A stretch of DNA of 64,000 nucleotides from Spirochaetota bacterium (GTDB taxonomy: Bacteria > Spirochaetota > UBA4802 > UBA5550): positions 1,920,001-1,984,000 of the forward strand of contig OY760686.1 of NCBI GenBank assembly GCA_963663865.1, in the 5' to 3' direction. Below are positions 4,578 to 60,597 of this stretch, piece by piece (position 1 is the first letter of the stretch; each line of letters starts with the position of its first letter). The translations under genes and the position numbers were made by a program. The notes beneath the pieces are model-generated. The model did not search any database and was not told the origin of the DNA. It saw nothing but the letters and a program-made list of their open reading frames with translations.

Positions 4578-5759
4578 ATGAGATATGTAATCGTTGGAAA
4601 CGGCCCGGCCGGGGTTGAGGCCGCCCTTGCAGCAAGAAAATCCGATCAGACCGGAGTAATCGACATCATCACATGTTCATCAAGCCTCTACTACTACAGG
4701 CCCGGTCTGGTTGAGCACCTTAACGGTGAAGGCGATCTCTCAAAGCTCGTCATGTTTAAACAAGATTTTTATGAGGAAAAAAAGATAACCAATATTCTCG
4801 GTACGCCGGTTGAAGGCATTGGGATCAGTGAATGCATGGTTTACGGTTCAAACGGAGTCAAAATAGGTTATGATAGACTTCTTATAGCAACTGGTTCTTC
4901 ACCATTTGTTCCCCCGATTATAGGAGTTGAAAATGAGGGGGTGTTCACGCTGAGAACAATGAGCGACGCGGAGCGTATTGGAAGCTATGTTATCGGTAAG
5001 AAGAGTGTAATTGTAATAGGAGCAGGTTTGCTCGGTCTGGAGATTGCGTACAACCTTTCCAGGTCCGTAAGCAGGGTTACGGTGATTGAGTCGGAAGACA
5101 GGCTGCTGCCCCGCCAGCTTGACTGTGACGGCGCCGATGTTCTGGAAAAATGTCTGTTATCATTGAACATTGATATTTTAAAGAAAGACAGGGTTCGGGA
5201 GATAAAGCCTGGCCCTGGCAAATTGCTTTCAGTTTACACTGAAGGAGGCGCCGGGATTGAGTGCTGTGCCGTCGTTGTCTGCGCGGGCGTCAAACCCGAC
5301 ACCAGTCTTGCGATTAGCTCAGGGATTAAGGCGGGTAAAGGCATAGAGGTTGACCGGTTTTTTAGAACCAGCTCAGAGAATATTTATGCTGCTGGAGACG
5401 CTGCCGAGTTTGATGGAAGAACTTTTGGGTATTGGAGCATGTCGAGAAGGCAGGGAACTCTTGCCGGTGGCAATATGACAGGAGCTTCAAATGACTATAA
5501 ACCTGAAAGAGGAAATACAGTACTAAAGATTGCAGGAATTGACGTATTCTCTGCCGGAGAACTTGATGTTGAAGGCTCCTCTTCAACTGTTGTCAATCAG
5601 GGCAGTGTTTATAAAAGGCTTGATGTCCTTGATGGTAAGATTACCGGAATTGCCGTGATTGGTGATTCTGATACGGCCAGGTTATCTCAGAAGGCCTTTG
5701 AAAAAAAAATACCTCTTGATGATATTGTTGAGTATTTTGAATATAAAAGGGTTGACTGA
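4578..5759 (+). CDS. NAD(P)H:FAD oxidoreductase (NADH:rubredoxin oxidoreductase-like)
   Basis: GNGPAG and GAGLLG dinucleotide motifs, YDRLLIATG, TSSENIYAAGD; next to rubredoxin. Confidence 0.88.
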   Translation: MRYVIVGNGPAGVEAALAARKSDQTGVIDIITCSSSLYYYRPGLVEHLNGEGDLSKLVMFKQDFYEEKKITNILGTPVEGIGISECMVYGSNGVKIGYDRLLIATGSSPFVPPIIGVENEGVFTLRTMSDAERIGSYVIGKKSVIVIGAGLLGLEIAYNLSRSVSRVTVIESEDRLLPRQLDCDGADVLEKCLLSLNIDILKKDRVREIKPGPGKLLSVYTEGGAGIECCAVVVCAGVKPDTSLAISSGIKAGKGIEVDRFFRTSSENIYAAGDAAEFDGRTFGYWSMSRRQGTLAGGNMTGASNDYKPERGNTVLKIAGIDVFSAGELDVEGSSSTVVNQGSVYKRLDVLDGKITGIAVIGDSDTARLSQKAFEKKIPLDDIVEYFEYKRVD

Positions 5760-5798
5760 TTGCAATGAGAATTGATATGTCATCAGTATAAATGTGTA

Positions 5799-6230
5799 AT
5801 GAGTACAAATATGTCAGACATAAATATAGCAGAAACTCTTCTGGAAAAGGGGATTAAACCCTCTTTTCATAGAATCAAGATACTCGAATACCTTGTAAAC
5901 AGAAAGAATCATCCGACGGCTGATATGATTTTCAGGGATATTTCGCCTTCGATTCCTACTCTGTCAAAGACAACTGTTTACAATACACTTAAGACGCTTT
6001 TAGACTATGGCGTCATTATCTCTCTTAATATAGATGAAGGCGAACAGAGGTTTGATGCTGACTGCACGCAACATGCACATTTGAAATGTATATCATGCGG
6101 TAATATATTTGATTTAGCGGTTGATGACAGCATAAGCGCTTATATTGAACACCAGAACCATATATTCCATGAAGTAAAGATAAACATTGAAGGCATATGC
6201 GCGGATTGCGCGGCTAATATAAACAAATAA
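5799..6230 (+). CDS. perR: Fur-family regulator, probably PerR
   Basis: [18 protein letters not shown], HAHLKCxxC...CxxC; inside the peroxide/superoxide defence cluster. Start uncertain (5772, 5799 or 5811). Confidence 0.8.
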
Positions 6231-6250
6231 CAACAATCAGGAGGAGAATT

Positions 6251-6409
6251 ATGAAGTACGAGTGCACAGTATGCGGATACATTTACGATCCGGAAACGGG
6301 TGACCCTGACAACGGTGTGTCACCTGGAACACAGTTCAGTGATATACCGGAGGATTGGGTTTGTCCTGTATGCGGAGTCGGCAAGGATTCATTTGAGCCG
6401 GTAGATTAA
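6251..6409 (+). CDS. Rubredoxin, 52 aa (absent from the ORF track)
   Basis: [52 protein letters not shown]; GGAGG RBS. Confidence 0.98.
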
Positions 6410-6426
6410 GATTTAAGGAGGTCATT

Positions 6427-6804
6427 ATGGCTAAATTACATGAGATTTACAAATGTGCTGTTTGCGGGAATATAGTTGAGGTTGTTCACGGCGGAGCCGG
6501 CAATCTTGTCTGCTGCGACGAAGAGATGAAGCTTATGCACGAGAACACCAGCGACGGCGCAAAAGAGAAACATGTGCCCGTTGTGGAAAAGGTTGACGGT
6601 GGTGTAAAGGTAACTGTTGGTTCAGTACTCCACCCTTCAGAAGAGAAACACTATATTGAATGGATTCAGATAATCCTTGAAGACGGTAAGGACATGAAAA
6701 AGTTCCTTAAACCGGGCGATACGCCTGAGGCGTTTTTCCCGAATGTCAGCGGCGATGTCATAGCGAGGGAGTACTGTAATCTTCACGGGCTCTGGAAAGG
6801 ATAA
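6427..6804 (+). CDS. dfx: Desulfoferrodoxin (superoxide reductase)
   Basis: YKCAVCGN...CC desulforedoxin domain, [21 protein letters not shown]. Confidence 0.96.
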
Positions 6805-6819
6805 AAGGAGATTGATTTA

Positions 6820-7395
6820 ATGAAAAGCGTAAAGGGAACACAGACAGAAAAAAACCTGCTTGAGGCTTTTGCAGGTGAATCACAGGCAAGAACACGATAT
6901 ACTTATTTTGCTTCAGTCGCAAAAAAAGAAGGCTATGAACAGATTTCAGCTATATTCATGGAGACCGCAGAGAATGAGAAGGAACACGCCAAGAGGTTCT
7001 TTAAATTTCTTGAAGGCGGTCAGGTCGAAATAACAGCAAAGTATCCGGCCGGCGTGATAGGCACTACGGAGGAAAACCTTCAGGCTGCGGCAATGGGCGA
7101 GAACGAGGAGCACACAATGCTTTATCCTGAAGCGGCCAAAACTGCTGACGAAGAGGGCTTTCCTGAAATAGCAGCCCTGTTCAGGCTTGTTTCAACCGTT
7201 GAAAAGCATCATGAAGAAAGATATCTCAAGCTGCTTGCCAACCTGAAGAATAAAGAGGTATTTAAAAAACAGGGAAAACAGCAGTGGATTTGCAGGAATT
7301 GCGGTTATATTCACGAAGGCGAATCAGCTCCGCAGATGTGCCCGACATGCCTGCACCCTCAGTCATTTTTCGAACTTCTTTGCGATAATTTTTAA
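6820..7395 (+). CDS. rbr: Rubrerythrin
   Basis: [21 protein letters not shown]-terminal CRNCGY...CPTC. Confidence 0.97.
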
Positions 7396-7402
7396 TTAAA
7401 CC

Positions 7403-7430
7403 GCTGACCGCGATTTAATTCGCGGTCAGC
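7403..7430. terminator. Strong stem-loop after rbr (no clear U-tract)
   Basis: GCTGACCGCGA-TTTAAT-TCGCGGTCAGC, an 11-bp perfect stem. Confidence 0.6.
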
Positions 7431-7440
7431 AAAATAAAAC

Positions 7441-8988
7441 ATGAAAAAAAACGAACGTAGTGCTGGAATACTCCTACATATCACAAGTCTGCCGGGAAGG
7501 TCAGGTTGCGGTACCCTTGGCGTGGAAGCGAAGCAATTCGCTGATTTTTTAAGCGAGGCAGGCTTCAAATTCTGGCAGATACTTCCGTCAGGGCCGGTAT
7601 CTCCGGCAACACAATACTCGCCCTACTCTTCACATTCAACATTTGCCGGCAATCCTTTATTCGTGTCGCTGTCAGATATTTTAGAAGGACTGGATAAGCC
7701 GATTATTCCTGAGATGTCCTTTGAGGACAGCAATAGCTGTAATTTTGACAGCGCATTTGATATAAACGGCAGAATCCTCTTTCAGTCATATAGATCGTTT
7801 ATTGCCAACAAAGACGAACAAATCGATGATTACAATGCTTTTCTAAACTTCTGTGATGAAGAATCTGCGTGGGTCGATGATTATGCTCTGTTTGAATCAC
7901 TTGCGTCAAAATTCGGGACACGGGACTGGACTCTGTGGGATGAAGGAATATCGTCCTTCGCTAACGAAGAAGTAAAGCGGTATAGGAAACTTCTCTCTGA
8001 AAACATAGAATTTCATAAATACGTGCAATATGTCTATTACACCCAGTGGTATGAATTGAAGGAATACTGCAATTCAAGGGGGATAAAGCTGATTGGAGAT
8101 ATTCCGATATACGTAGTTTTTGAGGGAGCGGACGCCTGGGCACACAGAGAGATATTTTCCCTTGATGAAAAAGGCCAAAGGCCTTCAACGGTAGCCGGTG
8201 TCCCTCCGGATTATTTCAGCTCAGAGGGGCAAAGATGGGGGAATCCGCTGTATCGTTGGCTTAACCTTGACGGCACCATAAATGAAATAACTTATGACTG
8301 GTGGCGTAGACGATTCTCGCATTTAAAAAAACAATTCGATGTTATAAGAATTGACCACTTCCGGGGCTTTGAATCCTTCTGGTCGATACCTGCCGAGGAA
8401 AAAACAGCAATTAAGGGCAAGTGGGTCAAGGGGCCCGGGTCGGCTTTCTTCGAGAAGCTAATGGATGACTTCGATTCTCTTCCGCTGATTGCCGAGGATT
8501 TGGGCGTGATAACCCCTGAAGTCGAAAATCTCAGAGATGAGTTTAAACTTCCGGGCATGAAGGTACTGCAGTTTGCCTTCGACGGCAGCCAGGATAATCC
8601 ATATTTGCCGCATAATATTCACGAACGAAAATGTGTTCTTTACACAGGAACGCACGACAATGACACCACAAACGGCTGGTTTTACGGCAAATCACTCAAT
8701 GATGAAAAGAGACGGTTCATAATGGAGTATCTGGATGTTTCAGACTATAGCAATATGCACTGGCATTTGATTAAAGCAGCTATGAGGACACCTGCCGAAA
8801 CGGTTATTATACCCATGCAGGATTTACTTGGTTTCGGAAGTGAATTCCGTATGAATACCCCGGGGACTATCGGAAAAAACTGGGTATGGAAGCTTAAAAG
8901 TGGAGATATAGTCGCAGATACAGCGGGAAAATACAAACATCTTCTTAAGCTCTACGGACGGCATAACACCTTTATTCAGAAAGATTGA
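7441..8988 (+). CDS. malQ: 4-alpha-glucanotransferase (amylomaltase)
   Basis: GILLHITSLP, SPY, GDIPIYV, GVPPDYFS, RIDHFRGF, IAEDLG, YTGTHDNDT, RMNTPG. Confidence 0.97.
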   Translation: MKKNERSAGILLHITSLPGRSGCGTLGVEAKQFADFLSEAGFKFWQILPSGPVSPATQYSPYSSHSTFAGNPLFVSLSDILEGLDKPIIPEMSFEDSNSCNFDSAFDINGRILFQSYRSFIANKDEQIDDYNAFLNFCDEESAWVDDYALFESLASKFGTRDWTLWDEGISSFANEEVKRYRKLLSENIEFHKYVQYVYYTQWYELKEYCNSRGIKLIGDIPIYVVFEGADAWAHREIFSLDEKGQRPSTVAGVPPDYFSSEGQRWGNPLYRWLNLDGTINEITYDWWRRRFSHLKKQFDVIRIDHFRGFESFWSIPAEEKTAIKGKWVKGPGSAFFEKLMDDFDSLPLIAEDLGVITPEVENLRDEFKLPGMKVLQFAFDGSQDNPYLPHNIHERKCVLYTGTHDNDTTNGWFYGKSLNDEKRRFIMEYLDVSDYSNMHWHLIKAAMRTPAETVIIPMQDLLGFGSEFRMNTPGTIGKNWVWKLKSGDIVADTAGKYKHLLKLYGRHNTFIQKD

Positions 8989-10174
8989 CAGATCTTGAAA
9001 CAATATAAGGTCTTCCCGAAGGCCCTTCAGGATTTACTATCACACCGCTGACTTTTACAGAAACGTTATTCTCGATTTTTTGAATAACTTCGGAAGAATA
9101 AATATCGGCCACACCTGAGAAGTTTCCTCCCTTTCCCGCATTTATCAAAAGAGAAAACGACGTTCCTTTGGCGCTTCTCGATATATTTGCAGTCCTGCCG
9201 GGCCATACGACAGCATATCCTCTGAAGAGATAGGGTTTTCGTGAGAATTCCTTATAATCAAGGTTTTCATATTCTCTCACATCTATATCTGAAATATATT
9301 TTAGAAGAAATAAAACCTTATCTTTAACCGCCGGACTGGCATTGCTGTTGATTATCCTGTTCAAGATCAGAACAGAGGAATTCAATTTGTTGTTTTTTAT
9401 AAGGGCTCTTGCCTTTTTATAATCATTGCCGAGTTCACCGGACGAGTAATAGAATTCAGAGGTCTTCTCCCTTGACACCCTGCTTATGAGGCTATATGGC
9501 GAACCGTCCAGTTCAAGACCGTCGATGCCGTCCGGCAACTCTAACTCCGGTCTGGAATTAGAAGATGAGTAATTTATATTAAAGTGATATAATAAACCGG
9601 ACAAAGCGGCTGCTGCTAAAAGTACCGTAACCGTGATGGCAGCATATCTGCGAATTCTTTTCCCGTGCCTTTTATTGGAAGAGTAGCTGCGTTGACTTAC
9701 TGAGCTATGACGTTTTGATGAAGCCGAAACTCGTGGAGGCCCGGGTATCTCGACAAAGTCTTCCAGCCGGGCATTTTTTTGAATATCATTGAAATTGTCT
9801 GTTTTCCGCAGCATTCGGAGCGCAGATGATATTTTACGGCTTGATCTGTCTGAAGCGTGAGCGAGGGCGTAAGAAGCAACTATTTCGTCAATTGACGTGG
9901 AAGCCTTAAGCTTAAGGAATAGATCAAGTTCTATGAGATGTCTGTATTGGGGCCAGGATTTGCGGAGCTTTTCGAGAATCAAATCTGATTCAGAAAAGCG
10001 GTTCAGATGCAGGTAGTTTACAGCAAGGAGGAACAGCGGATATGGGCTGTCTTTCAGTGTTATTACAACGGGTTCAAGTATAGCCGCTGATTCTATGTAT
10101 CTGCCCTTTTTAGTTGATTTATGTGCATCAACTAAAAGGCTGAAAACGCCGTCAGTCATGGCAGGAAATTTCAA
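8972..10174 (-). CDS. Membrane-anchored TPR-like protein with a C-terminal beta (OB-like) domain
   Basis: Helical-repeat N-terminus, one central TM segment, C-terminal PYLFRGYAVVWPG; overlaps the upstream gene by ATGA. Confidence 0.55.
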   Translation of the reverse strand: MKFPAMTDGVFSLLVDAHKSTKKGRYIESAAILEPVVITLKDSPYPLFLLAVNYLHLNRFSESDLILEKLRKSWPQYRHLIELDLFLKLKASTSIDEIVASYALAHASDRSSRKISSALRMLRKTDNFNDIQKNARLEDFVEIPGPPRVSASSKRHSSVSQRSYSSNKRHGKRIRRYAAITVTVLLAAAALSGLLYHFNINYSSSNSRPELELPDGIDGLELDGSPYSLISRVSREKTSEFYYSSGELGNDYKKARALIKNNKLNSSVLILNRIINSNASPAVKDKVLFLLKYISDIDVREYENLDYKEFSRKPYLFRGYAVVWPGRTANISRSAKGTSFSLLINAGKGGNFSGVADIYSSEVIQKIENNVSVKVSGVIVNPEGPSGRPYIVSRSVNLSE

Positions 10175-10416
10175 TCCCCAGGATCATCATCGTCGCGATT
10201 TTTCCCGAAAAAACGTGAAAAGGGATTGCCGCCGATGCCGTCTCCCTCAAGCATTTTGCCGATTACATAACCGGCAAAAGCAAGAATAAAGAGGAGTATC
10301 ATTTTCCAGAAACCGAAAAGAAGAATCGCGATTCCAGCCACAAACCCGATAAGGGCGCCGAATGCCCTGCCCGGATGTTCTCTGACAAAGTCAGAAAGGT
10401 CTTCAAAAAAACCCAT
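10171..10416 (-). CDS. Small integral membrane protein (DUF2273-like)
   Basis: HPGRAFGALIG...FGFWK...GYVIG; two TM helices. Confidence 0.75.
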   Translation of the reverse strand: MGFFEDLSDFVREHPGRAFGALIGFVAGIAILLFGFWKMILLFILAFAGYVIGKMLEGDGIGGNPFSRFFGKNRDDDDPGD

Positions 10417-10979
10417 TAATTCTTTACCCTCTCAACATAGTCACCTGTTTCGGTGTTTACTTTGATGTAGTCACCCTCGTTGATAAACAGGGGAACCCTT
10501 ACCTCAGCGCCCGTCTCTACTTTTACCGGCTTAAGGACATTTGTTGCCGTATCTCCCTTAACCCCCGGTTCAGCGTATGTGACCTTGAGTGTAACCGAGG
10601 AAGGTAATTCAATAGATATTGGTTCTTCTTCGTATATGGTAATATTTACAACATCTTCTTCCTTTATGAAGTCAAGTGCATTCCCTACCGCATTTACACT
10701 AATTGTTATCTGGTCATAGGTTTCTGTATCCATAAATGTCAGCGAATCAGACTCTTTGTAAAGATACTGCATTTCCCGTTTTTCAAGACGTACATCCTCG
10801 AATTTCTCGCCTGACCTGAATGTTCTGTCAACTACAGTTCCTCTTTTTACGTTTCTAAGCTTTGTTCTGACAAATGCCCCGCCCTTGCCCGGCTTTACAT
10901 GGAGGAACTCTACAACCTGAAAGAGCTCTCCGTCAAGCTTGAAAGTCACTCCTTTCTTGATGTCACTGGTGGAAATCAT
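10416..10979 (-). CDS. efp: Elongation factor P
   Basis: HVKPGKGGAFVR, PGVKGDT, VPLFINEGD. Confidence 0.99.
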   Translation of the reverse strand: MISTSDIKKGVTFKLDGELFQVVEFLHVKPGKGGAFVRTKLRNVKRGTVVDRTFRSGEKFEDVRLEKREMQYLYKESDSLTFMDTETYDQITISVNAVGNALDFIKEEDVVNITIYEEEPISIELPSSVTLKVTYAEPGVKGDTATNVLKPVKVETGAEVRVPLFINEGDYIKVNTETGDYVERVKN

Positions 10980-54733: not shown

Positions 54734-56134
54734 ATGATAAACATTATACTTTGCGGTGGTACAGGCACAGGGATGTGGCCGGTATCGAGGACGATGTATC
54801 CCAAGCAGTTCGCGGCAATCACAGGCGGACTTTCGACATTTCAGAAAACTGTTTTGAGAAACTCAAAGATGTTCGATGAGTTGTGTATTTCAGCAAGCAG
54901 CGATAACTACTTCATAGCCAAGCATCAGCTCGAATCCGTTCTGACCGGTGAAAAAGTCAGGTATATCCTTGAGCCCGCGGTAAAAAACACCGCGCCGGCA
55001 ATAGCGCTGGCATGCATGGGCATCGATCCGGAGAAAATTGTCGCCGTGACGCCCGCAGACCACATCATCGCGGATGAAAAAGCTTACGCCCGCCTCATGA
55101 GCGAAGCTGCAGAAGCCGCGTTAGAGGACAGGATTGCCGCCATAGGTGTTCCGGCTCTCAAGCCTGTGACTGAGTACGGCTATTTCCGCACAGCGGAAAG
55201 CGGAAACGGCGCTTTGAGAATAGCCGAGTTTCACGAAAAGCCGTCCATCGAAAACGCTTCGCTCTATGTATCTGACAGCAGCTGGTGGTGGAACAGCGGG
55301 ATATATGTTTTCAAAGCGGGCGTGTTTTTATATGAGCTTAAAACCTCATCGCCGGCTCTCTATGAATTTGCCCGCGCCGCATTCGAAGGCGGTGTGAAGT
55401 GCCGCGACAACGGAGCCTCTGGTCTAAAGGTGCCCGCGGATATAATGGAAAAGGTCGAATCAATCAGCATTGAAAAAGCCGTCATTGAGAATACGGGAAA
55501 CATATTCGCTGTTACCGGCGACATCGGCTGGAATGACCTTGGAAGCTTTGATTCGCTCTACTCCGTCTTAAAAAAGGACAGGAACGGTAACACCTCTGAG
55601 GGAAACATCATATACTCCGGCTCAACAAACAATCTCACCATATCAGACAATCGTAAAATCGCGATGGTCGGCGTTGACGATCTGATAGTCGTAGATACCC
55701 CTGACGCTTTGCTTGTCAGCCGCAAAAACGCCTCCGGTGAGCTCAAAGAAGTTGTGTCGCTTCTTCAGGATGAGGTCCCTGAAATAACATCGTTTCACAC
55801 GACTGTGCACCGTCCATGGGGAACATATACAATTCTGGACGAAGGAGAAGGCTTCAAGATCAAGCGTATTGCGGTGAAGCCAGGCAAGAGGCTGTCGCTT
55901 CAGAAACACGCTCAGAGGAGCGAACACTGGGTTGTTGTTTCAGGGACGGCCGTTGTCCAGATAGACGAAAACATGAACACAGTCCAGAAAAACGAATCAA
56001 TTTATGTTCCTGTCGGATCAGCCCACAGGCTGATAAACGAGGGCATGGTTGACCTTATTATTATAGAAACTCAGGTGGGAGACTACCTGGGCGAAGACGA
56101 TATAGTAAGGATTGAGGATGATTACAAGAGGTAG
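54734..56134 (+). CDS. manC: Mannose-1-phosphate guanylyltransferase / mannose-6-phosphate isomerase
   Basis: PKQF, LEP..KNTAPA, PADH, FHEKP, WNSG, WNDLGS, RPWG, LSLQKH..RSEHW, EDDIVR. Confidence 0.95.
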   Translation: MINIILCGGTGTGMWPVSRTMYPKQFAAITGGLSTFQKTVLRNSKMFDELCISASSDNYFIAKHQLESVLTGEKVRYILEPAVKNTAPAIALACMGIDPEKIVAVTPADHIIADEKAYARLMSEAAEAALEDRIAAIGVPALKPVTEYGYFRTAESGNGALRIAEFHEKPSIENASLYVSDSSWWWNSGIYVFKAGVFLYELKTSSPALYEFARAAFEGGVKCRDNGASGLKVPADIMEKVESISIEKAVIENTGNIFAVTGDIGWNDLGSFDSLYSVLKKDRNGNTSEGNIIYSGSTNNLTISDNRKIAMVGVDDLIVVDTPDALLVSRKNASGELKEVVSLLQDEVPEITSFHTTVHRPWGTYTILDEGEGFKIKRIAVKPGKRLSLQKHAQRSEHWVVVSGTAVVQIDENMNTVQKNESIYVPVGSAHRLINEGMVDLIIIETQVGDYLGEDDIVRIEDDYKR

Positions 56135-56249
56135 CGTGCCACTTGTTTAACACGGAGAACGTAGTCCCGATGTATAATGCGTAACGGCTCGACTGTTCCC
56201 TGCGTTAATATGTTTATTATCCCCATGCACTGTCTCACACGAAAATGTT

Positions 56250-56600
56250 CCGGCCTTCGGCTTCCCTACTTCTCTTGTTATCAGCGGGGGCCGACCGGGT
56301 GCTCAAACAAACGCAGCGCTTTTCCCCGCGTCTGACTGCGATGTACTCCGACAAACATGGTGTTTTAGTGCCGATGGCCGCCAGGAATATAATGGCGGAA
56401 TTAAGAAAATGCAGGTCCCCTGCTTCAACAACGCAACCCGGGCGATTTTCAAGGATGAAAATCGCACAGCGCCGACGTTCAGGATGAACTAGTGCCTAAG
56501 CCGCCCAGGAGGGGCAAAAAGGCTTAGGCCTTTTCATCACGATGATGATAACGGAGCTCAAACAGTCGAGTAACTGCAAAAGCCTAGCCCTTCCGGCGCC
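56250..56600 (+). repeat. Structured non-coding repeat, copy 1 (GGA-loop hairpin array)
   Basis: Left motif CCGGCCTTCGGCTTCCCT; core 56336-56600 aligns with 57611-57819; several hairpins with AGGA loops. Confidence 0.85.
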
Positions 56601-56857
56601 AAAAGACATTGGTCGAAAAGCAGGCGGTTTTTGCCAACAACAGATTGTCAACAGCACACGTGAATCAAAACAACAATCTATCTTAACGCGGCGAATGCGT
56701 TAGTCTTTCTCACTTAAAAAAAACAAAAACAGTAAAAATTGTAATTGATTTCCAAAGATTCTACTTTTAAGATTAATTGAATATTATTAATAACAATCTT
56801 TTATAATAATGTATTCTCTTAAACATAATTCTACTGCCCTCACTACAGGAGATTTGA

Positions 56858-57040
56858 ATGCTACCCTTAAAACAGAACTATATCATTGATACAAAAGGCA
56901 ATCCCGTTAGCGTGATTATTCCCAAAAAAGACTATGACAAGCTGGTAGATTACATAGAAGAACTGGAAGACATAGCCGCCTATGACTGCGCTAAAAAAGA
57001 GAAAGGTTCTCACAAGCCCTGGAAATCTGTAAAACGCTAA
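56858..57040 (+). CDS. Antitoxin of a RelE/ParE-type TA pair
   Basis: YIIDTKGNPVSVIIP..DY..L...EELED; 60 aa; AGGAG RBS; 3 nt upstream of the toxin. Confidence 0.85.
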   Translation: MLPLKQNYIIDTKGNPVSVIIPKKDYDKLVDYIEELEDIAAYDCAKKEKGSHKPWKSVKR

Positions 57041-57043
57041 ACA

Positions 57044-57301
57044 ATGTACGAAATTATTTTTCTTTCCTCAGCCGTAAGAGATTATAAAAAATTACCTGAT
57101 AAGGTAGTTCCAGACATAAATGACGCCATTGAAGCCCTTGCAGATAATCCCCATCCACGTGGATGCAAAAAACTAAAAAACCGCAATGCCTTTCGAATAC
57201 GTGTTAATATTTACCGTATAATCTATGAGATTAATGAACAAAATATAACTGTTTTTGTTATCAGAATAAGGCAGAGGAAAGAGGTTTACCGGAATTTATA
57301 A
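57044..57301 (+). CDS. relE: RelE/ParE-family toxin
   Basis: MYEIIF..SA.RD.KKL, LADNPHPRGCKKL, RIRV..YRIIY, R.RKEVYR. Confidence 0.92.
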   Translation: MYEIIFLSSAVRDYKKLPDKVVPDINDAIEALADNPHPRGCKKLKNRNAFRIRVNIYRIIYEINEQNITVFVIRIRQRKEVYRNL

Positions 57302-57381
57302 TGAACTGCCAAATAACAAACACGGAGCACTGACCCGGCCTTCGGCTCTCCTCAACTTGTCAGATGTGGAGGCTCGTTATC

Positions 57382-57515
57382 TCTCGCAAAGTTCGCCAAG
57401 TATGCGAAGTCCCTGATCTGAAACTTCATGAACTATTATTACCATTCAAATTCCGATGCTGCCTAATTCATTTATATTAATATTCTCCATTGCGTTCTCA
57501 GCGTACTTTGCGAGA
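57382..57515. repeat. Imperfect inverted repeat pair (CGCAAAG-type periodic arms) around an AT-rich spacer
   Basis: TCTCGCAAAGTTCGCCAAGTATGCGA (57382) versus TTGCGTTCTCAGCGTACTTTGCGAGA (57490-57515); 20 of 26 positions complementary. Confidence 0.7.
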
Positions 57516-57576
57516 ACACCATCAATACTGGCGTTTCGTATAGTTTCTTTTGAAGTTTGCTTATTTCCACGAGATG

Positions 57577-57861
57577 TTGGCTTCCCTCCTCATCTTGTCA
57601 TTCGCGGGGGCTGCGAGGTAGTCCGACAAACAGGATGTTTTAGTGCCGATGGCCGCTAGGAACATAATAGCGGTATTAAGAAACTGAAGGTCCCCTGCTT
57701 CAACACCTCAACCAGTGCGATTTTCAAGGATGAAAATCGCCTGGGCGCCGTTTCATCACGATGATGATAACGGCGTTGAAATAGTCTGGTAAAAGGAAAG
57801 GCCAAGCCTTTCCGGCGCCTGAGGAACGGGCTTTGGTCACTTTCGCCCGGACGAAAGTGAC
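57577..57861 (+). repeat. Structured non-coding repeat, copy 2, with terminal hairpin
   Basis: Same core as copy 1 but without a ~57-nt two-hairpin module; ends in GTCACTTTCG-CCCGGA-CGAAAGTGAC. Confidence 0.85.
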
Positions 57862-57981
57862 GAAGAAAAAGGTCTCACACTCCCAGTGTGAAGAAGACTG
57901 CAGGCTCCCTGCAAATAAAAATGCGTGTCACGAAACCCAGCGGCGAAAGAAATGCCCGTGCATTCTGCACAGCAAACAGTC

Positions 57982-58005
57982 GTAGGGGACGGTCGAGACC
58001 GTCCC
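57982..58005 (+). repeat. GTAG-type REP-like palindrome
   Basis: GTAG followed by GGGACGGTC-GA-GACCGTCCC. Confidence 0.7.
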
Positions 58006-58350
58006 GAATAAACAAAGTACCACGCTCGAAGCGTGAAATAGACGGCAGGCCCCCCTGCCAGAAGAGAAGCGTATCGCGCATCAGAGCGAGTTAATGCCAG
58101 CAGCCAAACACCAGGATAATCTAATCGGTGTTGACACGGATCATTCCTGCTGATAATAATCAGCTTATAGCAAAAAAATGAACAAACAGAGCTTCATTAT
58201 TAAGAATCAGTACATGAAACAGTTCTAATGATTATAATGCAAAAATAGCTGAACTCAAAATGAGGGCTATTTGATTTCTTTTACAAACACATCAACTCGC
58301 TTATTAGGATATCTATAAATTCTTAAAACTTAAAGGATGGTTTGATATAA

Positions 58351-60597
58351 ATGCGGAATAATGAGATTAAAGAATTGAGCATTATTCGTTCACTTATGAT
58401 ACTCTGTATTTTCATAACCCATTACTACGAGTTCTTCAATCCAGGAGATTCTGCAGCATTTGGAAATCCATCTGCGGGTTGGCCTTCATTAGGTGAAAGG
58501 TTCGCACAACTAAGACCTTTAGAATATGTAGATTGGACTTCCATAGTTGAGAATATTTATAGATATCTCGCCTTGTTTGGCGATCAAGGAGTTCAAATCT
58601 TTTTTTTGATAAGCGCTTTTGTTCTTACTCTGGGTTTTGAAAGAAAAAAGAATGGGCTTTTAACCTATAAAGAATTTCTATCTAAACGATTTTTCCGTAT
58701 TTATCCAGCCTGGATATTGGCTCATTCAGGTTTAGTCCTAACATGGATAATCTTTGGTGCGGGCATTAGTCTATTTTCAATAAACACCTGGCTGAGTATG
58801 GCCGGAGTCAGGATTATACCTTCTCTCTATTATTATGGATCTCCGGCCTGGTGGTTTGTAGGCTGCCTGCTGCAATTATATCTGATTTATCCATTTGTTT
58901 ACAACTGTACGATTGGGAAGAATTTACCAGTTCGCCTCCTCTATTTAATAGTGATATCAACTATTATAAGGCTGTGTGGACTCGTTTTCCTTTCAAACTA
59001 TTTTCCGCATTATCTTGATGCATGGTCCCGTGGATTATTTTTTATTGTAAGAATGCCGGAATTCCTTATTGGAATTTATTTCGCGGATAAATACATGAAG
59101 AACAGGGAAACAACTCTGTCTTTTATTAAATCCTCTCGAGGCATCATCATAGCCCTTGGCATCTGGCTCGCAGGAAATATTCTTTCATTTACCTTAATAG
59201 GAATGTCAGTTTCATTTTTACTCACAGGAATTGGAGGATTCTGCCTTTTATGGGGATTGCTCTTAAAAATCAAGACAACTCAAAACAACCTGTTATTACG
59301 ACTAAACAACATCTCCTATGAATTCTATTTAGTCCATCATGTTATTATATTGTATATAGCTTATAAGCTCCAAAACATAGTGTCTTTTCACGCGATTACT
59401 ATTATCCTTATTTTTACAATAACCCTTATATTCTCAATTATCCTTAGAAGGGTTTCTCGGAATCGGTATATTATTACCTTTCTAAAAAAATCATTGTCTT
59501 TCCTGTGGAACAGGAAAAGGCATATTTGCATTTCACTTTTAATCCTTTATTTATTATTAATTGGCTTTGAATTGATAATTCAAAGAACTAATCCACAGGA
59601 AATTTATGGCTGGGGGGAAAGACCTGCACTGCAACCCGACAATAAATTCGGCTATAAACTAAAACCTTCAACCCGGACGAGATTGATGTGGCAAAGTTAC
59701 GATTATCATGTGAATTCAAACTCCTCAGGATTTCCTGGAATGGAATATTCCATGGAAAAACAATCAGGAACAAAAAGATTTATTATTACCGGAGATGCGT
59801 TTGAAAGTGCAGAAGGTGTTGATACTGAAAAAAGCTGGCCCTCATTGCTGGAAGAATATCTGAACACTGACAGTAAATCAAATTATGAAGTCATGAATTT
59901 TTCTATTACCGGATGGGGACCACAGCATTACTTTAGAGCTCTTAACGAATATGTTCCACAGTATCGTCCTGATGCAGTATTTGTCGCACTTTTCATTAAC
60001 GATTTAACTGACGTCTTCATTACGGATAAAGCATTTATGGATTCTATAGGCTTTGGCAGGCCTTCTCCCTTCGGATTTAAGTCAACAGTGAGGCTGGAAC
60101 ATACAAGAAAGCTTATCCACATCAAGAAGGGGCGGCTTTTAGCACTGATTAACAAAAACAGATATCCCTATGATTATTATTTAGGTCACCCGGACAAATT
60201 CCTTATTAAAAACTATCCAAAATTAAAGGAAGGCCAGCAGTTAGTATCCAAGTATCTGAAAAATATACTATTATTATGCGAAAAGTATGATTCGGACTTA
60301 TACATAATTCTTGTCCCATCGTCTTTACAATCCGCCGATCCAGGTGAGATTAATTACATTCCTGAAAATATCGATTTAAGAAATAACAAACTCTATGATC
60401 TAAACCAGCCCCAAAATTTATTAATAGAAATCTGCGATAATTTAAACTTAAAGTATTATGATTTAAGAGAATTGTTTCAAATAAATAAAGGGAGAAATAT
60501 TTTCCAACCTGATAATATGCATTTTACAAAAAATGGACATAAGATTACGGCAGAATGGATGAAGGAAAATATTCTGAAGCTTAATTATAACAGGTAG
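58351..60597 (+). CDS. Acyltransferase-3 fused to an SGNH-like domain (polysaccharide O-acylation)
   Basis: IRSL...H, GVQIFFLISAF, KRFFRIYP, WFV...QLYLIYP, SYEFYLVH; C-terminal GDAF, NFSITG, ND, DNMH. Confidence 0.88.
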   Translation: MRNNEIKELSIIRSLMILCIFITHYYEFFNPGDSAAFGNPSAGWPSLGERFAQLRPLEYVDWTSIVENIYRYLALFGDQGVQIFFLISAFVLTLGFERKKNGLLTYKEFLSKRFFRIYPAWILAHSGLVLTWIIFGAGISLFSINTWLSMAGVRIIPSLYYYGSPAWWFVGCLLQLYLIYPFVYNCTIGKNLPVRLLYLIVISTIIRLCGLVFLSNYFPHYLDAWSRGLFFIVRMPEFLIGIYFADKYMKNRETTLSFIKSSRGIIIALGIWLAGNILSFTLIGMSVSFLLTGIGGFCLLWGLLLKIKTTQNNLLLRLNNISYEFYLVHHVIILYIAYKLQNIVSFHAITIILIFTITLIFSIILRRVSRNRYIITFLKKSLSFLWNRKRHICISLLILYLLLIGFELIIQRTNPQEIYGWGERPALQPDNKFGYKLKPSTRTRLMWQSYDYHVNSNSSGFPGMEYSMEKQSGTKRFIITGDAFESAEGVDTEKSWPSLLEEYLNTDSKSNYEVMNFSITGWGPQHYFRALNEYVPQYRPDAVFVALFINDLTDVFITDKAFMDSIGFGRPSPFGFKSTVRLEHTRKLIHIKKGRLLALINKNRYPYDYYLGHPDKFLIKNYPKLKEGQQLVSKYLKNILLLCEKYDSDLYIILVPSSLQSADPGEINYIPENIDLRNNKLYDLNQPQNLLIEICDNLNLKYYDLRELFQINKGRNIFQPDNMHFTKNGHKITAEWMKENILKLNYNR

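Follow-up and report, generated by a model that had tools for sequence, protein, structure and literature searches.

A dispersed mosaic family of intergenic hairpin repeats bearing CsrA-type sites in a spirochaete genome

The stretch analysed here is a 64,000-nt window (G000:C1:1920001-1984000; positions are those of the window unless the contig is named) from the 3.16-Mb, single-contig, 98%-complete genome of a Spirochaetota bacterium. A repeat region, bordered by genes for a mannose-1-phosphate guanylyltransferase (54734-56134) and an acyltransferase (58351-60597), contains two arrays of short hairpins that flank a RelB/ParE toxin-antitoxin cassette. A sequence-only reading of this region had described the arrays as a duplicated string of hairpins displaying GGA in their loops, in the manner of sites for the RNA-binding regulator CsrA, and had proposed that they are either a CsrB-like sponge RNA or a dispersed repeat that carries CsrA sites. 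The second proposal is borne out both in the dispersal of the copies (about 36 loci) and in the quality of the sites (GGA is the loop consensus). There is good support for placing the window copies in a mosaic family of hairpin repeats that occupy intergenic DNA, are dispersed through the genome and bear CsrA-type sites; the family is new and apparently undescribed.

The hairpins quoted in the sequence-only reading are all found where it had placed them, and they fold as drawn. GCGATTTTC-AAGGAT-GAAAATCGC is common to both copies (56442 and 57717), as is TCATC-ACGAT-GATGA (56534 and 57753). AAAC-AGGAT-GTTT is found in copy 2 (57628), GTTC-AGGAT-GAAC (56477) and GCCC-AGGAG-GGGC (56503) are extra to copy 1, and the variable stem reads CCGCCA-GGAATATAA-TGGCGG at 56378 and CCGCTA-GGAACATAA-TAGCGG at 57653. 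The two stretches are direct repeats, with 89% identity over 130 nt (56336-56465/57611-57740) and 82% over 73 nt (56528-56600/57747-57819), and they share an additional upstream piece that had been overlooked (56259-56291/57579-57611, 82%). Two of the earlier descriptions need amending: the module reported as missing from copy 2 is indeed absent there but is a 58-nt unit (56475-56532), not one of about 57 nt, and the two copies, while real, are not the whole of the repeat, which extends as far as about 58110 (modules F-H) and recurs in dozens of other genomic copies.

The region can be divided into modules A to H (Table 1). By eye, each array carries four GGA loops (56385, 56453, 56482 and 56508 in array 1; 57633, 57660, 57728 and 57848 in array 2). 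The first loop of module B has been mutated in array 1, to AAAC-ATGGT-GTTT (56353), ahead of the CCGCCA hairpin at 56378; in array 2 the AAAC-AGGAT-GTTT hairpin at 57628 precedes the CCGCTA hairpin at 57653, and AAAC-AGGAT-GTTT...CGCC-AGGAC-GGCG is the sequence of intact relatives at other places in the genome. The array 2 copy of module A begins 34 nt past the toxin stop codon and is interrupted by an inverted repeat which, by BLAST coverage, has 2-4 copies in the genome and may be a small element inserted into array 2. Modules F-H contain the hairpins GTCACTTTCG-CCCGGA-CGAAAGTGAC, CACAC-TCCCA-GTGTG, GGCAG-GCTCC-CTGCC and GGGACGGTC-GAG-ACCGTCCC; read on the minus strand, these are hairpins followed by T-rich tails. 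The toxin-antitoxin pair (56858-57301) is GC-poor and present as a single copy genome-wide. Four assembled-contig runs are broken at the repeats, and all four contain the toxin-antitoxin stretch 56595-57597.

Table 1. Features of the repeat region in the window. DU, dual-GGA unit.
Feature	Position	Strand	Evidence and remarks
Module A, 5' module of array 1 (CAATGTTCCGGCCTTCGGCTTCCC...CATCTTGT type)	56240-56300	+	11 genome matches including its own
Module B of array 1, deletion derivative of a DU	56336-56400	+	9 genome matches; array 1 part at 56346-56398; partial covariance-model match 56351-56381, 20.5 bits
Module C of array 1, hairpin at 56442-56465	56400-56470	+	fold z -2.7; 29 genome matches (25 sense, 4 the palindrome read backwards)
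Module D	56471-56531		5 genome matches
DU	56475-56532	+	covariance model 77.8 bits, E 1.4e-19
Module E of array 1, hairpin TCATC-ACGAT-GATGA, variable linker, GCCTAGCCCTTCCGGCGCC	56528-56605	+	GGA lost in this copy; 25 genome matches
RelB-like antitoxin gene	56858-57040	+	Pfam PF18506, E 6.4e-08; between the arrays
ParE-family toxin gene of the toxin-antitoxin pair	57044-57301	+	Pfam PF05016, E 1.8e-11
Start of module A of array 2	57335-57352	+	89% to 56250-56267; severed from its own 3' part
Inverted repeat inside module A of array 2	57382-57515		24-nt arms, 86-nt spacer, 79% complementary
3' part of module A of array 2	57579-57611	+	82% to 56259-56291
Module B of array 2	57611-57675	+	partial covariance-model match 57626-57656, 30.6 bits; 89% identity to array 1
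Module C of array 2, hairpin at 57717-57740	57675-57741	+	genome matches, motif location
Module E of array 2, TCATC-ACGAT-GATGA at 57753	57747-57819	+	weak PrrB_RsmZ-like match 57719-57822, 19.3 bits
Module F of array 2, hairpins with A-rich linkers	57830-57925	+	36 genome matches
Module G of array 2, hairpins with A-rich linkers	57925-58010	+	14 genome matches
Module H of array 2, hairpins with A-rich linkers	58010-58110	+	29 genome matches

Used as a BLAST query against the genome, array 1 gives 55 matches and the whole repeat region gives 148, which we assigned to 36 loci; these occupy 17 genome regions and have a combined length of 15,204 bp. The copies are diverged (65-92% identity), and the combination of modules varies between loci; 7-8 of the 11 copies of module A, though not that of array 1, are preceded by an extra conserved hairpin module. 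Hairpin columns are better conserved than linkers (at least 90% against 40-70% in module E), and GGA is the consensus of the loops throughout the family: 21 of the 25 module E copies have TCATC-AGGAT-GATGA, two have ACGAT, both of them in the window, and the other two have no match, and module C has GGA in the loop of 23 of its 25 sense copies while its stem covaries from T-A to G-C (GATTTTCA/TGAAAATC versus GATTTGCA/TGCAAATC). When a hairpin is counted only with a loop A[U/C]?GGAN and a stem of 4 bp or more, the sense strand of the 36 loci has 85 GGA-loop hairpins and the antisense strand 0, with 2.2 per strand expected from the genome-wide rate. Eleven clusters of three or more such hairpins exist in the genome, and all 11 lie inside the 36 loci.

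The evolutionary core of the family is the dual-GGA unit (DU), a 58-nt structure in which a 4-bp hairpin with the loop AGGAU is joined by a YAGUG linker to a stem of 8-9 bp, within which lies a second 4-bp hairpin; the second loop is AGGAN, and an A-rich bulge, AAAAN, lies inside the longer stem. In the window this architecture is realised as GTTC-AGGAT-GAAC, the linker TAGTG, and the stem CCTAAGCC/GGCTTAGG around GCCC-AGGAG-GGGC and the bulge AAAAA. The unit occurs once in the window, compared with 0.00 occurrences expected from 100 shuffles, and folds with a minimum free energy of -26.2 kcal/mol (z -3.1; the whole of copy 1 has z -2.9). The DU has three subtypes, of which the window module is one; module B, in both of its window copies, is a deletion derivative of another.

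Covariation between the DU copies is strong and supports the proposed fold. In a first alignment, drawn by eye from 11 sequences (nine from this genome and two from other genera), 96.1% of cells are paired and 11 of 17 pairs show double changes, with no more than six in slid controls. A second alignment holds 40 instances from 29 loci of other genomes, and, although its fitting to the covariance model favours the structure, 97.2% of its cells are paired, 15 of the 17 pairs show compensatory changes, and double changes occupy 184 cells, where shuffles give 52.5. None of the 40 instances departs from C-G at the two pairs that close the loops. The loops are kept as CAGGA(U/N)G and the stems change by compensation.

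The covariance model, built from the first alignment, finds the DU well beyond this genome. At E <=0.01, 62 of the 64 family genomes examined, representing 24 of 25 genera, have between 1 and 59 matches each, and across the order the model detects it in 89 of 121 sampled genomes, drawn from all seven families. At E <=1e-7, a phylum-wide sample gives 10 of 111 genomes, seven from the same order (this genome included) and three from other orders, which make up about 100 genomes of that sample. With a whole array as the query, BLAST against 30 relatives returned nothing past three pieces of about 40 nt, two of which fall in the DU. Among viral contigs the DU pattern had one match, which the covariance model did not confirm. 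One locus of a relative, L035 in G005, has at 1200-1560 about nine NNNN-AGGAU-NNNN hairpins with unrelated stems, two full DUs included.

What could such loops be read by? CsrA is the best candidate ligand of the DU. Its two GGA triplets are 26 nt apart, a spacing inside the range that one CsrA dimer can bridge, and this spacing, together with the short stems, would suit one dimer. Both hairpins also fit the SELEX (in vitro selection of binding sequences) consensus for CsrA, RUACARGGAUGU, as well as the placement of GGA in a hairpin loop and the stem length, mostly 4 bp or less, that go with it (PMC7652899). Both csrA and fliW are present in the genome; csrA is single and canonical, beside fliW and flgL in a flgL-fliW-csrA operon, and its product has the HRKEIY motif and a C-terminal extension, with FliW-bound CsrA as its best match among solved structures (5DMB, E 1.2e-19). 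Four of the five flagellin leaders inspected contain, by eye, a 4-5-bp hairpin with an A(A/U)GGA(U/A/G) loop 20-45 nt before the ribosome-binding site (upstream of 2959589(+), 142898(+), 143922(+) and 2604320(-) in the contig). These are likely to be native CsrA sites; a GGA hairpin before the ribosome-binding site is the leader layout described for CsrA-repressed flagellin mRNAs (PMC7652899).

We therefore put forward, tentatively, that the repeat family acts via CsrA binding, which we regard as the most likely mechanism while crediting it with a little less than an even chance. If an array copy were transcribed in the GGA sense, each DU would display two CsrA-type sites, 26 nt apart on 4-bp stems, and the pair could clamp one CsrA dimer. 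The arrays would then be RNA decoys or local tethers for CsrA, a role suggested by the at least 85 GGA hairpins that the genome's arrays hold. Array RNA would compete with the flagellin leaders, which bear the same kind of hairpin, and would work beside the protein antagonist FliW. The more ambitious version of this proposal, in which dozens of DU copies, organised here into CsrB-like arrays, form an order-wide mobile decoy that is transcribed and sequesters or tethers CsrA, is possible but we consider it doubtful.

Several observations weigh against action through CsrA. Array orientation bears no relation to that of the genes: with crude gene calls based on open reading frames (ORFs), the upstream gene is co-oriented with the array at 17 of the 36 loci in this genome and the downstream gene at 11, and in other genomes 26 loci include eight with a co-oriented and 12 with an opposed upstream gene, and 12 of each kind for the downstream gene. 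Many copies, if transcribed, would thus be transcribed in the wrong sense. No conserved promoter-like block was found upstream of module A in its 11 copies, and a consensus scan, itself weak evidence, gave no convincing plus-strand promoter or terminator around the window arrays; the sole plus-strand terminator-like site near them, at 56683-56703, is weak. By eye, the spacing in the block that precedes module A was wrong for either a sigma-28 or a sigma-70 promoter, and both readings were rejected. Three loops in the window have lost GGA (ACGAT twice and ATGGT once), which indicates that single copies decay. The choice of strand receives no help from the fold, as both strands fold equally well and the strand test is uninformative; a count of G-U versus A-C pairs (9 versus 2) is too small, and too biased by the model, for this purpose. 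Finally, csrA is present in 112 of 121 genomes of the order, including genera without the DU (in one, g24, csrA is found in 9/9 genomes and the DU in 0/9). Being near-universal, csrA is not tied to the DU, and a comparison of their phyletic profiles is uninformative.

A DU copy also behaves as mobile DNA. In G011, the second complete genome, it lies within a repeated element of about 200 nt with the ends CCGCCCC...GGGGCGG, and this copy is absent from the orthologous site in both sisters in which both flanks were found (two of the five searched). Such presence and absence between sister species, and the defined ends, speak for the main rival explanation, that the family is selfish mobile DNA and nothing more: the hairpins, the loops and the YAGTG linker would be recognition features for a copying enzyme supplied in trans, acting for example on single-stranded DNA at the replication fork as in REP/RAYT or IS200/IS605-type systems, and the likeness to CsrA sites would be coincidental or secondary. 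We regard this as possible, although on the unlikely side. It draws on the replication-strand bias of the arrays in this genome, where the GGA-sense strand is the lagging strand at 33 of 36 loci (14-15 of 17 genome regions). The bias is independent of gene direction; only 59% of genes are on the leading strand. Bias to the lagging strand is typical of single-strand transposition. The origin was taken from the skew minimum at 340 kb, with dnaA beside it at 350 kb, and the terminus from the skew maximum at 1.92 Mb; the window itself starts at this GC-skew maximum, the likely replication terminus. In G011, however, no such bias is seen, and 24 of 49 fit the rule.

The enzyme called for by this explanation has candidates in the relatives. 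Diverged Y1 (HUH) transposase-like genes encoding about 200 aa are present in 59 of 63 other family genomes (G001-G075), with 1-13 matches each, and look like domesticated RAYT-type genes. This genome has 0 matches to the Y1 family PF01797, and the combination of diverged copies and a missing Y1 gene would fit a spread that has stopped. Against this, none of 12 Y1 genes in six relatives has a DU within 1.5 kb, even with E relaxed to 1. Inspection by eye showed no target-site duplications at the G011 element, a repeat search found no terminal inverted repeat framing the window arrays, and the ends of the resident IS256-like and IS3-like insertion sequences are, by eye only, unlike the array ends. 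It can also be argued that stems which covary freely around fixed loops are better suited to an RNA-binding protein that reads loops than to a transposase that reads stems. Spirochaetes are reported to be rich in miniature inverted-repeat elements, which adds some plausibility to mobility as such: for a cluster of spirochaetes (Leptospira, Sediminispirochaeta and Treponema) a census gives a per-genome mean of 145 conserved elements, and its main text contains 0 mentions of CsrA or hairpins (PMC11602168).

We find it improbable that the arrays are generic 3'-end or insulator elements of the REP/ERIC kind, which would stabilise upstream mRNA or block read-through, mainly by way of the minus-strand hairpins of modules F-H, and have no CsrA role. 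Nine of ten terminator-like sites in 55900-58500 are indeed on the minus strand, six of them in modules F-H, with 2.9 expected for the whole region, but their T-tails are weak (5/8 T). At 25 of 36 loci the gene flanking the H end is directed towards the array, a figure near the ~58% that the strand biases of genes and arrays would give by themselves. Arrays are also found less often between divergent genes (5/36) than between convergent genes (11/36), as this explanation would have it; what it leaves unexplained are the fixed GGA of the loops across the order and the strand asymmetry of 85 to 0.

The other proposal of the sequence-only reading, a discrete CsrB-like sponge RNA gene that has been duplicated in the window, is not supported, and we judge it very improbable. 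GGA hairpins are dense, and module C to E of array 2 gives a weak PrrB_RsmZ-like match (57719-57822, E 0.12), the best sub-threshold match to Rfam; its 19.3 bits fall well under the gathering score of 44. At gathering score, the Rfam scan of the window returned tRNA only and scans of seven further array loci returned nothing, and the near-misses are confined to the Csr/Rsm clan, CL00106. A gene of this kind should not be found at some 36 loci, with a module content that varies from one to the next, no common promoter or terminator found in the scans, and no fixed orientation relative to genes. An integron cassette array (attC), suggested by the toxin-antitoxin pair between the two arrays, was set aside, as the arrays are dispersed strings of many hairpins and the genes between arrays elsewhere are opposite in direction, although no integrase search was made.

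Several known systems resemble the family in part. With the CsrB/CsrC/RsmX-Y-Z RNAs (CL00106) it shares strings of short hairpins with GGA loops and a site spacing suited to a CsrA dimer, and CAGGA(U/N)G, loop plus closing pair, is the repeat type of CsrB. Those sponges, however, are each a single gene with a promoter and terminator, whereas here dozens of mosaic copies are dispersed in any orientation and score under every family threshold; the host, moreover, is of a fliW-type lineage, and an anti-correlation is described between fliW and the BarA-UvrY systems behind the Csr small RNAs (PMC7652899). The TwoAYGGAY motif (RF01731) also has two GGA-loop hairpins, and the loops of module C are literally AYGGAY (AUGGAU or ACGGAU). 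It differs in that the DU has a nested second hairpin, an A-rich bulge and the YAGUG linker, and its taxa (gut, Gammaproteobacteria and Clostridiales; Table 1 of PMC2864571) are not those that host the DU. No TwoAYGGAY match was found in the window at E up to 10. The only near-miss is at one relative's locus, on the strand opposite the array, with 28 bits against a gathering score of 43; this weak match lies at L035:1012-1132.

Among repeats, REP/BIME elements with their RAYT proteins are similar in being short intergenic palindromic units, combined in mosaics and present in many copies, with a strand bias in this genome. REP elements are conserved in the stem and the 5' GTAG, whereas conservation of the DU is in the loops and not in the stem; in addition, this genome has no Y1 transposase and the relatives' 12 Y1 genes have no adjacent DU. 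The BOX elements of pneumococci and the ERIC elements of enterobacteria are modular or long imperfect palindromic intergenic repeats, conserved across related genera, of unknown mobility and thought to be active at the RNA level. Their design is similar to that of the present family, but sequences and hosts are unrelated, and we know of none with paired CsrA-type loops. Our literature search found no description of a spirochaete GGA repeat or of a repeat element linked to CsrA.

RNA sponges for CsrA are known mainly in Gammaproteobacteria, and FliW-bearing lineages use a protein antagonist. A covarying two-loop module of the CsrB type, outside Rfam and spread through an order, would be a concrete object with which to ask whether RNA can titrate CsrA in FliW-type bacteria. 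Should the arrays prove to be a decoy system, they would establish RNA-based CsrA antagonism in a FliW-type phylum for the first time, with a spreading repeat family plugged into a global RNA-binding regulator. If the loops instead serve the element's own spread, the family would be a new kind of structured bacterial repeat, with a striking replication-strand bias in this genome.

Other repeated sequences of the contig lie close to some of the arrays. IS256-like (Mutator-family) copies are at G000:C1:176961-178287, 1104164-1105486 and 2241525-2242851, and IS3-family copies at 977239-978499, 2240215-2241475 and 3008384-3009643; a hairpin array lies no more than about 3 kb from four of these six, suggesting that the arrays occupy plastic regions of the genome. 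A 6.3-kb segment is duplicated at 95-98% identity (G000:C1:770939-777332 and 1177621-1183918), its first copy overlapping an ORF of about 2,100 aa, and arrays at 770411-770928 and 1177315-1177652 abut the respective copies. The start of the contig carries a tandem 5.2-kb duplication of 99.8% identity (G000:C1:1-5199 and 5456-10660).

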